From: Shigella phage ESh25
Reading direction: 5' to 3' (one strand)
Length of the DNA: 64,000 nt
Sequence record: ON528735
This document shows positions 19,539 to 51,070 of the stretch, piece by piece (the stretch's first letter is position 1; each line of letters starts with the position of its first letter). The notes beneath the pieces were generated by a model, which was not told the origin of the DNA, searched no databases, and saw only the letters and a program-made list of their open reading frames with translations. The position numbers and the translations under genes were made by a program.

Positions 19539-19989
19539 AATCCACCACTATTAAATCAATATCAGGAGTAAACATGTCGATTAATTTAGAAACCTTATCC
19601 CAATCGCCGCCAGCAATACCGCAACCTATGCGTGGAATGTAAATTACTGGTTTAAACAAAAGGGTTTCTGCCTGTAGATTTAATTCTATCATGCAGTTTA
19701 CTAAAGCACCATAATCAAGATTAGGACCCGGTTCGTATTGTGTATACAGGTTATAGCATATACCAAATCCCGTAGGACTATGTTTAAAAACAATAGACAT
19801 ATCGCCTAATTTATCACGAGAACCGTACTCGGTAGTGGTTTTATCTATTTCTAAAATTTTGGGATAGGCTCTTGCTAATTGACCCGCTACGCCAGAGCCC
19901 ATTGTGTGGAAGCAATTGCACCCGTGCGCAATAATATTACCTTGAAGAAATAGGGCGACAATATCGCCCTTGATATATTTTACAATCAT
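19510..19989 (-). CDS. macro-domain-like protein (possible ADP-ribose-processing enzyme)
   Basis: 159 aa with N-terminal GDI...GNIIAHGCNC and glycine-rich GSGVAG motif resembling macro/Appr-1-p folds. Confidence 0.5.
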   Translation of the reverse strand: MIVKYIKGDIVALFLQGNIIAHGCNCFHTMGSGVAGQLARAYPKILEIDKTTTEYGSRDKLGDMSIVFKHSPTGFGICYNLYTQYEPGPNLDYGALVNCMIELNLQAETLLFKPVIYIPRIGCGIAGGDWDKVSKLIDMFTPDIDLIVVDYESTLPASV

Positions 19990-20327
19990 CTAGTACTCAA
20001 TCCTCGATTATAAGAATCTACTAAACGGTCAACCATTGAATGACAAGCGGCTTTATCTTTCTCCTCCGCAACTGAACATTCTAAAGTATTCCACTTTTTA
20101 GCATATCGTTTTAACAATGTATCATTTTTATATCTGCTTGATTTATCTCTTTCTCCGTCTTTATATGCATATATTAATTTCTGCGCAAATTCAGCTTGGC
20201 ATGCTTTATTTTTCCCACAATAATCCGCGGCAGTACGGTTTACATACTCTCTAATTTCAGTATATGATGTATCTGCTAACACAGAAAATGAAATTAATCC
20301 TATACATAAAACCAAAATTTTAGTCAT
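19986..20327 (-). CDS. small secreted/periplasmic protein (113 aa; vs position)
   Basis: N-terminal signal peptide-like segment MTKILVLCIGLISFSVLA. Confidence 0.55.
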   Translation of the reverse strand: MTKILVLCIGLISFSVLADTSYTEIREYVNRTAADYCGKNKACQAEFAQKLIYAYKDGERDKSSRYKNDTLLKRYAKKWNTLECSVAEEKDKAACHSMVDRLVDSYNRGLSTR

Positions 20328-20865
20328 TTACTATTTCCAAAAGTTTATTATTTTTAAGGTAATTAGCCTTTTCTAGGACTTCAGAAGCATATTTAGAACC
20401 TGCTTTAACATTCCATCCCGAATTATAAGAGGATATTGCTTTTCTTATATCGCCCTTATGTATATTTAACCAATAAGAAAGTTCAATGTACGCCCAGGAA
20501 GCTGAATTGGACCGTTTATTCAACATTCTTTTTATTTCAGCATCGGTCATATTATAACCAAGTTCCTTAACTCTTGCTCGCATAGTAGGCAAATAATTTT
20601 GGAACATTCCATAAGCGTGATGCTTTGGTTTAGATTTTAAATTAACTCCGCCAGAGCTTTCTTGCCATAAAATAGCAGCCATTATATGACCTAATCCGCT
20701 CTTGTGGATATTTTTGTGTGTTTTATATTTTCCATCCTTAGAAAATTGTTCCCCGAATTGATACGCGTAACGCATGTTATCGAGTTGGACATTACTGAAA
20801 GTATGCTCGGAGCTATGTGCCATCATTGAAATGGCCAATAGACCAGCGAGTAGTGCTTTTCTCAT
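20320..20865 (-). CDS. periplasmic lytic transglycosylase-like protein (vs.1 position)
   Basis: Signal peptide plus SLT-like QESSGG motif. Confidence 0.6.
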   Translation of the reverse strand: MRKALLAGLLAISMMAHSSEHTFSNVQLDNMRYAYQFGEQFSKDGKYKTHKNIHKSGLGHIMAAILWQESSGGVNLKSKPKHHAYGMFQNYLPTMRARVKELGYNMTDAEIKRMLNKRSNSASWAYIELSYWLNIHKGDIRKAISSYNSGWNVKAGSKYASEVLEKANYLKNNKLLEIVND

Positions 20866-20872
20866 GCTTACC

Positions 20873-21334
20873 TCATTGAGTTTTAATTACTGCTTTAGAA
20901 GCCTTTCCTGGTAAACGACGACTGTTGATAATTGCCATCCTACATTGAAGTGACGGGTTTTTGAACTTCTCATTAGGTTTACAAACCGTAAATCCAAGCC
21001 AAAGATTTCCATCTGTAATTTCCAAACGCCCAGGACGATATTCAACCCCATCAATAAAATCCTCGTCAATGTCAGGACGTGGAGGCATACTCAGGAATTC
21101 ATTAACTTCTAAAACATGGTCTTTTATTTTATGGAATAATTCAAAAACGTATGTCTCATCAATCTCCCGTTGAATTGCGCGATCAAGAAGATGTTGAGAA
21201 TATTTTAGATGAAACGATGAGACCCCTGCTGCTTTTGATGCCTCACGAATCTCATTGTTAATTTGACGAAACTCCGACTCAAAGTGACGACGGAGCTTAT
21301 TTCGACGGATAAAAACTTCTGTGTTGATAGTCAT
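20873..21334 (-). CDS. regB: RegB site-specific endoribonuclease
   Basis: 153 aa; recalled near-identity to T4 RegB; early promoter upstream. Confidence 0.9.
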   Translation of the reverse strand: MTINTEVFIRRNKLRRHFESEFRQINNEIREASKAAGVSSFHLKYSQHLLDRAIQREIDETYVFELFHKIKDHVLEVNEFLSMPPRPDIDEDFIDGVEYRPGRLEITDGNLWLGFTVCKPNEKFKNPSLQCRMAIINSRRLPGKASKAVIKTQ

Positions 21335-21393: not shown

Positions 21394-21672
21394 TTATTCT
21401 TTAAATCTAATCAATTTATTCATAGACTTTGAAACTTCTGCACGAACCTCATGTAAGTTTTTAAGCTGTTCAAGACGCTGCTCATAGTAAGCAATTTCAT
21501 CTTCTTCGAGACAGTCCTGTGAATCTTCTTTAAGATAACGTGCATAGTCCTGAAAAGCTTTACGGACTACTTCCTGGAAGTCATCAAGACTTTGAATTTT
21601 CTTAGGAGCGGCAGATACACGACGAGGTGCAGTATAATACTCATAACCAAACCCTGCACTTAATTGAGCCAT
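21394..21672 (-). CDS. hypothetical protein (about 92 aa; vs.3 position)
   Basis: ATG at 21672 overlaps the upstream stop. Confidence 0.5.
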
Positions 21673-21935
21673 TAGTATTTTTCCTCTGGTTGGAACACTG
21701 CACGACAAGCCCACATACTGGCTTCTTTGAGTTTCGTTTTAGCAATAGTTAACTGATCGAGGCTTTCAGCATAATTCTTCGCGAGTTCATCATCTTCACA
21801 ATTATCTAGTGCTTCCCAGAATTCATCGTATAAAGCGTCAAAGATAAGTCCTAAACGAACTTCAGCGTCTTTAATAGCATTTACTTTACCGATTTTTTTC
21901 GTCGGTATGTGGCTTATAACCTTTAATATCTTCAA
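21672..21935 (-). CDS. acb2: Vs.4-like protein; candidate anti-CBASS cyclic-oligonucleotide sponge (Acb2-like)
   Basis: 87 aa at the vs.4 position of T4 gene order; T4 Vs.4 is the described Acb2. Confidence 0.5.
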
Positions 21936-22153
21936 TCATATTTGACTTCCTCACCAGTACATAAATCATATTCAACTAAACGAATAGGTTCATGAATGCC
22001 ATATCCTTGAACAGAAATTTCTGTCGTAGGATAAATTCCATTAATATCACCCATATTCCAGGCTTCATTAAATTGCTGTTCGCCTGAATTACTAAACCAC
22101 TCGGCGAAAGCATTTAGCACATCTTTAGAACCTTCAATAATTATCTTTGCCAT
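21932..22153 (-). CDS. hypothetical protein (73 aa; vs.5 position)
   Basis: Intact short ORF. Confidence 0.5.
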   Translation of the reverse strand: MAKIIIEGSKDVLNAFAEWFSNSGEQQFNEAWNMGDINGIYPTTEISVQGYGIHEPIRLVEYDLCTGEEVKYD

Positions 22154-23436: not shown

Positions 23437-23533
23437 TTCTGTATTTACCCATTACCGCACTTGGGCTCGACCTTATTACAGGTTGGCGGGAATCCCTCAC
23501 AGAATCATGAGGTCCAGGTTATTCCCATGTTAT

Positions 23534-23950
23534 TTAAATGTAAATATTTTTGCCGTAATACTTATACCAGTGTGGCTTCATTAAAATTTTTTCATCGAGT
23601 CGTTGTTGACTCAACTTAATAGCTGATTTGCATGGATTATAATCATTTTTCCATTCTACTGGAATATCGCTGATGTCAGGAACTTCAGTATCTTTTATAC
23701 TGAACCCGCGTTTTAAGCATTCCGTTATAATGTCCGATTGACGCTTTCGCAAAAATTCTAACTTATCGTAAAAGAAAGTAACATGACCAGAACCTAAAAT
23801 AAATTTAGAAGATATTTTAAAATCTTTAACGCGCTTACCGTTTGCCACATGCTTACGAACTATACCAAAAACACGCGGCAATTCACGGTATTCTGCGATT
23901 AAATGTTGATCAGCAAGTTCAGATACTAAAGTCAAATTAATACGAGTCAT
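23534..23950 (-). CDS. denV: endonuclease V (pyrimidine dimer DNA glycosylase)
   Basis: 138 aa; recalled near-identity to T4 endo V. Confidence 0.95.
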
Positions 23951-23974
23951 TTTATCCCTCCAAGTAACTGTGAA

Positions 23975-24005
23975 TATACTATCACAATTCTAGGAGAAAG
24001 TAAAC
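23975..24005 (-). promoter_or_regulatory. T4-type early promoter (-35 GTTTAC, -10 TAGTAT)
   Basis: GTTTAC at 24005-24000, TAGTAT at 23980-23975, in the 60-bp e-denV gap. Confidence 0.5.
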
Positions 24006-24009
24006 AACT

Positions 24010-24540
<531 letters not shown>

Positions 24541-25837: not shown

Positions 25838-26232
25838 CGTGATTCCTTAACAAATTTCATAATTTCGTTAAATTCATGCATATCTAATTTAAGCTGGTGT
25901 TCCTTTTTAATCTTTTTACACTGAGCTTTCCATTCACGTACACGTTTACGATAATGCCTTCCTTGATACCAATATCCTACCCAATTTACAGGTACCAATA
26001 AAAATGGAACTACTAATGGAAGAATTAATACTAACAAAAATATTACGCCAGATTCAATATCAGTCATAAAGTCTATAACCATTCCAACAACCAATAGAAT
26101 TACAAATGATATAGCTGTCACAGGACCTATTAATACATCAGTAGGAATTAGCTGACGCTTTAGTTCATACTTCACAGGTTTACTTGGAAGGTATAGTGAT
26201 GGCTTTGACATATTCTCTACATTCCTTAACAA
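25819..26232 (-). CDS. membrane protein (137 aa; e.4 position)
   Basis: Hydrophobic helices; basic C-terminus. Confidence 0.55.
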   Translation of the reverse strand: MLRNVENMSKPSLYLPSKPVKYELKRQLIPTDVLIGPVTAISFVILLVVGMVIDFMTDIESGVIFLLVLILPLVVPFLLVPVNWVGYWYQGRHYRKRVREWKAQCKKIKKEHQLKLDMHEFNEIMKFVKESRCKSQN

Positions 26233-26785
26233 ATTTTTCTAATAATAAATCGCTTTCAAAATTAGGATTTTCCACGAATTTATCAAAAAGATCATCAACG
26301 ATAGTTAAGATATTCTTTTTATTAAGAATACGCTTATTTTCATATTTTGTTTCAGAGTCAACTATAAGAGTAAAGAAATATTTCTTTCCCTGAAATTTTA
26401 CCGTAGTATCAATATAGAACAAATTTGACTTTTGTAAATTACGTTTAAACCATGCGTCACTTAAACTGTAAACGCCAAGATAATCATAATCGTCGTTTAA
26501 ATAACATACTGTCCATTCAGGAGAAATGAAATCAGTAAATTCAACATCAAAATCACATGTTAATGAATGAATTGATTCAATACTGTTAATAAGTATTCCA
26601 GGACGTATTAAAGACTTTTTACCTTTATAAAATCCAGAAAGACTTTCATCAGTTTCATATGAAGAACCCCAATAATAATTACGTCCTTCTGCCATACGTT
26701 TAAGAGCATTTAATAATTGGTCTGGAACATCAACTTGTCTTTGGAATTCTTCAAACATTGAATTGAAATCACTTTGCATTTTCAT
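26180..26785 (-). CDS. hypothetical protein (201 aa; e.5 position)
   Basis: Intact ORF. Confidence 0.6.
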   Translation of the reverse strand: MKMQSDFNSMFEEFQRQVDVPDQLLNALKRMAEGRNYYWGSSYETDESLSGFYKGKKSLIRPGILINSIESIHSLTCDFDVEFTDFISPEWTVCYLNDDYDYLGVYSLSDAWFKRNLQKSNLFYIDTTVKFQGKKYFFTLIVDSETKYENKRILNKKNILTIVDDLFDKFVENPNFESDLLLEKFVKECREYVKAITIPSK

Positions 26786-26827
26786 TCCTATTTACTCCAA
26801 GTAATAGGGGCCGAAGCCCCTTTATCA

Positions 26828-27421
26828 TTATTTCAGAGAATTAATGTATTCCTGAACATCAGCAGAGGTAGTTTCAACCCCAGAAATATTGCCATTAAAG
26901 GTTTCAACTCGGGCAAGAGTATCTTCAATATCAACCTTAGTCAGCGCTGCAATTTCAACTACATCATCAGCAGTACTAATTCCGAGGGCATTAGCGGCGC
27001 GAGTTTCACGGATATATTCCAATTTAACTGCAAGTTCTTGGCGAGCATCATCTAACTCAACTACTTTCTTGGCGATTTCAATTCGCATTTCAGCATAACC
27101 ATCAGCTTTAGTAGTCAACTGCTCAGCTGTTCGACGATATAGTAAACCGAGTTTAGCATGCATTGTTACATCTTGACCTTCCGAAAGAAGCTTGCGAATT
27201 TCACGCTCTTTTGATTCGGCCTGCTTATTCTTTTCGACAATAAGTTCACGAATACGCTTTTCTTCATTAATAGATTTAACAGAAGCAGTTTTTAGATCTT
27301 TAATCTTATCAAGTAGTTTTGCTGCTGCAGCAGTATACTGTTCTTCAACAGATAGATTTTTAGCCATAGCAGAACCAAGTTTAGTGCGAATAAACTCAAC
27401 AATTTTCTTCAGTGTGTTCAT
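26828..27421 (-). CDS. coiled-coil protein, PspA/IM30-like (197 aa; e.6 position)
   Basis: Long heptad-rich helical sequence; GC tetraloop hairpin downstream at 26807-26820. Confidence 0.55.
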
Positions 27422-31924: not shown

Positions 31925-31955
31925 TTTTATTTTCCTAATTAATTTTGATGAGGTA

Positions 31956-31997: not shown

Positions 31998-32682
<685 letters not shown>

Positions 32683-51043: not shown

Positions 51044-51070
51044 GGGGCCGCAAGGCCCCAAAGGATTTTT
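51044..51070 (+). terminator. hairpin terminator after wac (GGGGCCGCAAGGCCCC)
   Basis: GC hairpin followed by a T-containing tract. Confidence 0.5.

Follow-up and report, generated by a model that had tools for sequence, protein, structure and literature searches.

A one-base insertion near the start of vs.4 in a T4-like phage sequence: a candidate natural loss-of-function allele of the Acb2 sponge

The anti-CBASS genes of T-even phages are vs.4 (acb2) and, as the second, acb1. Vs.4 of T4 (NP_049728; PDB 7UQ2) assembles into a helical-hairpin hexamer, which takes up three cGAMP molecules, with a Kd of about 30 nM for 3',3'-cGAMP, in pockets that are each built from two protomers (PMC10097602). 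Within the pocket, Y8 and F82 stack on the bases, while Y8, H11, K23, and R79 make polar contacts, and Y8 and F82 mutants do not inhibit the effector CapV (PMC10097602). CapV is likewise not inhibited by T12I, a loss-of-function allele recovered from a screen, in which a helix cap is removed (PMC10097602). T4-Acb2 binds dinucleotides only and does not bind cA3 or cAAG (PMC10312549). The Acb2 of the Pseudomonas phage PaMx33 (Huiting et al. 2023; PMC10312549) is similar in that it belongs to PF24729 and forms its pocket from N-terminal Y11 and K26, but it is only about 24% identical to T4-Acb2 and binds cyclic trinucleotides too. Homologues of Vs.4 were gathered within PHROG 717 by Jenson et al. 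(2023; PMC10097602). For Vs.4/Acb2, family and fold as well as ligand and mechanism are settled knowledge, to which the gene itself adds nothing new.

The gene is dispensable on hosts without CBASS (PMC10097602), and a reason to lose it is known in the Panoptes defence. The inactive variant Acb2-Y8A does not activate Panoptes, and among 15 T4 escapers of Panoptes, 14 were mutated in acb2/vs.4, with frameshifts among the mutations (PMC12657218). T2 is not restricted by Panoptes, and a natural mutation is thought to disrupt its dinucleotide site (PMC12657218).

The DNA analysed here, the window, is a 64-kb segment of a T4-like phage (Tequatrovirus). Many deposited genomes are 96-97% identical to it over 24 kb; none is identical, and none exceeds about 97%. 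The genes were assigned from the ORF list together with the annotations of AR1, RB14, RB27, and T4, except for the 87-aa ORF, which comes from the ORF list, and acb1, which was identified by its match to the Acb1 structure PDB 7T26 (E=4.1e-62).

19986-20327, minus strand: vs
20320-20865, minus strand: vs.1
20873-21334, minus strand: regB
21394-21672, minus strand: vs.3, 92 aa
21672-21935, minus strand: 87-aa ORF with a TTG start, in the vs.4 slot
21932-22153, minus strand: vs.5, 73 aa
22153-22515, minus strand: vs.6/GrcA
between vs.6/GrcA and denV, minus strand: vs.7 and vs.8
23534-23950, minus strand: denV
24010-24504, minus strand: e
31998-32453, minus strand: acb1 (gene 57B), 151 aa, intact

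The T-even position of vs.4, between vs.3 and vs.5 and downstream of regB, is kept, as judged by synteny with T4, AR1, RB14, and RB27, and the 87-aa ORF occupies it. In this respect the initial annotation, which had placed the ORF at the vs.4 position, was right; it had also counted the ORF as the fourth gene past regB, which the local gene order corrects to the second. The similarity to T4 Vs.4/Acb2 that it proposed is borne out by alignment: residues 12-87 of the ORF match the T4 Vs.4 structure 7UQ2 with E=6.7e-45, the ORF scores 56.5 bits against Pfam PF24729 (Acb2_Tad1_hairpin; cutoff 27), and PHROG 717 matches it with E=7.5e-25. From these matches, we regard it as essentially certain that a Tequatrovirus vs.4/acb2 orthologue occupies this locus.

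An ORF of 87 codons is indeed present at 21672-21935 on the minus strand, as first reported, but it is not the native gene, and its TTG boundary is mechanical. The elements of the native gene are as follows.

21949-21952, minus strand: GAGG, a Shine-Dalgarno-like element, read from the sequence
21937-21939, minus strand: native vs.4 ATG, placed by DNA alignment with AR1, Ge15, RB14, RB27, T4, and T2
21886-21939, minus strand: native 5' segment of 17 codons and a premature TAA (21886-21888), carrying Tyr8, His11, and Thr12
21893-21899: homopolymer with a 1-nt insertion, T7 on the plus strand and A7 on the coding strand, from the relatives' alignments
21672-21893, minus strand: intact vs.4 body in the +1 frame, Ile16-Tyr88 and TAA (21672-21674), from alignment

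On the coding strand, the window reads GAC GAA AAA AAT CGG TAA where RB27-type relatives read GAC GAA AAA ATC GGT AAA, with a run of six A's (A6), and T4-type relatives read GAA GAG AAA ATC at the same run. Because of the one extra base that turns A6 into A7, the native frame closes after 17 codons, and the native 5' segment, which lies in another frame than the 87-aa ORF, is cut off from the gene body. No frame runs uninterrupted from the native start through the hairpin domain. The 87-aa ORF begins at TTG because the ORF lister carried the +1 frame as far upstream as a start-like codon allowed. That TTG, at 21935, comes immediately after an in-frame TGA. Residues 1-11 of the ORF are thus the true 5' end translated in the wrong frame and have no match in Vs.4, and residues 12-87 correspond to Vs.4/Acb2 residues 13-88. 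When one A was removed in silico, we recovered a protein of 88 residues that shares 97% identity with T4 Vs.4 and 99% with AR1 Vs.4, and the Pfam match was extended from positions 8-58 of 58 for the 87-aa ORF to positions 1-58, at 71 bits. In a comparison with RB27 that begins 23 nt before the ATG and runs into the start of vs.3, the window has one extra A and eight substitutions, all of which lie downstream of the run. A compensating second indel was sought over this stretch, and there is none. Downstream of the run, vs.4 has undergone no further decay and its functional residues are all kept, as would be expected both after a very recent mutation and in the case of an error.

To evaluate what the frameshift costs the protein, we aligned the TTG-initiated product to T4 Vs.4. 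It has Ile, Ile, and Pro at the positions of Tyr8, His11, and Thr12, so the N-terminal aromatic residue that stacks on the base (Tyr8 in T4, Tyr11 in PaMx33) is replaced by Ile. In the body, the ligand residues K23 (the salt-bridge Lys, K26 in PaMx33), S74, R79, and F82 are conserved, as are the hexamer-interface residues L29, F33, A66, A73, and A77 (roles from PMC10097602). We considered residual trinucleotide binding and rejected it for this lineage, since the residues blamed for its lack in the T4 type (Y37, A57, L60, D61, and T64) are all present; no alternative ligand site is expected because T4-type Acb2 is without a trinucleotide site. As written, the sequence is predicted to encode no functional cyclic-dinucleotide sponge. 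The proposal that the 87-aa protein is a cyclic-oligonucleotide sponge is therefore unsupported for this sequence, with the frame shifted at codon 15/16 and Tyr8, His11, and Thr12 replaced, and would be fully right should the extra A have arisen in sequencing. On the same grounds, cGAMP binding is predicted to be negative for the 87-aa ORF product and positive for the A6-corrected protein.

It is conceivable that A7 is real and that function is partly rescued in expression, or that the TTG product has a residual role, although we consider either highly unlikely. Rescue might occur by slippage of RNA polymerase on A7, with one A lost or two gained, or by a +1 slip of tRNA-Lys on AAA-A. A runs are generally known as slippage sites; seven A's are, however, also generally known to be short for efficient transcriptional slippage, and no stimulator (a rare or stop codon in the A site) lies beside the lysine codons. 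Alternatively, initiation at the TTG might yield a Tyr8-less protein with another role, such as hexamer formation or coupling to vs.3. In the window and in T2 alike, no stop interrupts the +1 frame between the TTG and the natural end of the gene, and the TGA of vs.5 (21932-21934), 5 nt past the native vs.4 ATG, overlaps the TTG (TTGA) in a geometry that can permit re-initiation. The GAGG lies 9 nt upstream of the native ATG and 13 nt from the TTG, and the ATG, at good spacing from the GAGG, should prevail over the TTG in initiation; moreover, Y8 mutants are inactive (PMC10097602, PMC12657218). That both natural 5' frameshifts, in the window and in T2, fall in the same frame class might hint at use of the +1 frame, but chance alone gives two out of two in 25% of cases. 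Two further routes were rejected. A programmed -1 frameshift on A-AAA-AAT would lead into a frame that ends four codons on (…KKSVK*), whereas the body lies in the +1 frame, and internal restart would have no start codon to use, since the stretch from the frameshift to Met75 contains neither ATG nor GTG nor TTG in frame.

A different concern is whether the extra base exists in the phage at all. We consider it a serious possibility, though one we lean slightly against, that the extra A is a homopolymer error of sequencing or assembly and that the real phage has A6 and a normal 88-aa sponge. A single-base change in homopolymer length is the classic form of such an error. With a 101-nt query, 123 phage records were identical to the window apart from the extra base, so that a single base in the A run is the sole difference from them, and none of the 312 matching records carries it; across vs.3-vs.5, each of the fetched relatives aligns to the window with one gap and no more. 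The A7 string was absent from metagenome contigs and GTDB genome contigs, among which the A6 control string was found in 2 metagenome contigs. In IMG/VR the A7 string was not found, but neither was the A6 control string, so that this search is uninformative. An error would also account for the absence of further decay in vs.4, for an A7 allele that is found nowhere else, and for the recovery, on removal of one A, of an 88-aa Vs.4 with a full-length Pfam match.

Against an error, we measured how the rest of the window behaves. About 62 kb of it was aligned to three relatives and a T4 segment (bov9_1, PhiZZ23, S1P5QW, and T4), and every indel with a length that is not a multiple of 3 was listed. 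Of the indels unique to the window, only the vs.4 insertion shifts a coding frame without being compensated; the remaining indels were paired or compensated in divergent stretches, or intergenic. There are 50 A/T runs of at least 6 in the window, and only the vs.4 run breaks a gene. With the scan clean and the other 49 A/T runs without a coding frameshift, we rejected a systematic homopolymer error in the assembly. Also counting against an error are the genuine 5' frameshift of vs.4 in T2, described below, and the known selective reason to lose Acb2 (Panoptes; PMC12657218).

The scan also turned up window-specific intergenic length differences of 1-2 nt, in short homopolymers or AT-rich spacers. 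They lie at 1038-1116 (between 892 and 1121), at 26821 (between the ORFs 26180-26785 and 26828-27421), at 31928 (upstream of a minus-strand start), and at 51070 (between wac and gene 13).

The closest natural counterpart is the vs.4 allele of T2 (NC_054931; 4591-4855 on the minus strand of the compared T2 sequence). There, codons 7-8 have lost 2 nt, and the ATG frame runs into a stop at codon 8 (MIEDIKG*). In the T2 record, the annotated CDS starts at the same TTG as the window ORF, in the +1 frame (LKILRDKPHTEEKIG…), and is without Tyr8. The two alleles are alike in that each is frameshifted within the first 15 codons, has an ORF only from the TTG, and is without Tyr8. They differ in that T2 keeps His11 and Thr12, whereas the window, with its 1-nt insertion at codon 15/16, loses both, and in that the T2 deletion recurs in all eight T2-lineage records (the T2 records and SV76) and in no other record, whereas the window allele has been seen once. 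The insertion lies 16 nt downstream of the T2 deletion and is independent of it, with the same qualitative outcome. Compared with T4 Vs.4/Acb2 itself (PMC10097602), the window has the same locus and residues 16-88 that are 97% identical, but its frame is broken after codon 15, with Tyr8, His11, and Thr12 left in a detached 17-codon ORF. The laboratory T4 escapers of Panoptes (PMC12657218) resemble it in carrying loss-of-function frameshifts in the same gene (as well as stops and deletions), but they were experimentally selected.

Other recorded disruptions of the vs.4 slot in Straboviridae are rare. In Mosigvirus EP32a, the slot is damaged, with about 42 codons kept (695-823 of the compared sequence) and regB directly after; the deletion removes vs.3 too. 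In Slopekvirus kp20, the Vs.4 match comes in two tblastn pieces (401-660 of the compared sequence), and no CDS is annotated.

Our best explanation, which we would back and doubt in equal measure, is that the window carries a genuine loss-of-function allele of vs.4, analogous to that of T2. A runs are classic slippage hotspots in T4. We postulate that replication slippage from A6 to A7 put everything past codon 15 out of frame. Translation from the native ATG would then end after a 17-residue peptide, and the gene body would be readable only from the poorly placed TTG, giving a product that, if made, would be without Tyr8, His11, and Thr12 of the dinucleotide pocket and probably inactive. Intact Vs.4 keeps cyclic dinucleotides from CBASS effectors, a function that would be lost in the A7 allele. 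The expected phenotype would be a phage that has no cGAMP sponge, does not present the Acb2-sensing trigger to Panoptes, and is more sensitive to cGAMP-type CBASS, with the intact nuclease-type Acb1 left as its only anti-CBASS factor. We favour this loss-of-function reading because the run is prone to slippage, vs.4 is dispensable, Panoptes counter-selects it, acb1 is intact, and the rest of the window is clean. Against a genuine allele count, besides the homopolymer setting, that A7 occurs in no other record searched and that vs.4 is strongly conserved: in 1223 of 1231 Straboviridae records, at least 80% of the protein is spanned by one match, in a tblastn coverage test that would itself miss a frameshift so near the 5' end.

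With a real extra A, the phage would follow T2 as the second natural T-even isolate without the dinucleotide sponge; the phenomenon has been described only recently, and the allele would at most add a second case from nature. Such an Acb2-off allele, arisen independently of that of T2, would support selection in the field by defences that sense the sponge. It would also bear on the recently posed CBASS-versus-Panoptes dilemma and predict which hosts the phage can infect, which is relevant when T4-like phages are chosen for therapy or for defence-system screens. Automatic ORF calling would annotate an 87-aa "Acb2" and, with it, CBASS evasion, while the sequence as written predicts the opposite phenotype.

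We also considered that the A run might be a reversible on/off switch for Acb2, slipping between A6 and A7, with the window caught in the off state; we think this quite improbable. If it were true, the on state would evade cGAMP-CBASS but trigger Panoptes, and the off state would evade Panoptes while relying on Acb1, so that, in a lytic phage, an anti-defence gene would be under the control of a homopolymer contingency locus.

The frameshift may reach beyond vs.4. The vs.4 stop overlaps the ATG of vs.3 (TAATG, 21670-21674), and from this overlap translation of vs.3 is probably coupled to that of vs.4. Early termination of vs.4 about 210 nt upstream could, via lost coupling, lower vs.3 expression. 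In a profile search, the only match for the vs.3 product was weak and sub-threshold, to Tex_N.

Farther along, the spacer between vs.8 and denV is only 97 nt (23437-23533), and the internal-protein gene is absent at this hypervariable spot, where AR1, bov9_1, and PhiZZ23 have an Ip4-like gene of about 474 nt. The spacer between denV and e is only 59 nt (23951-24009), at another hypervariable spot that is without internal-protein genes here and where T4 has ipII and ipIII.
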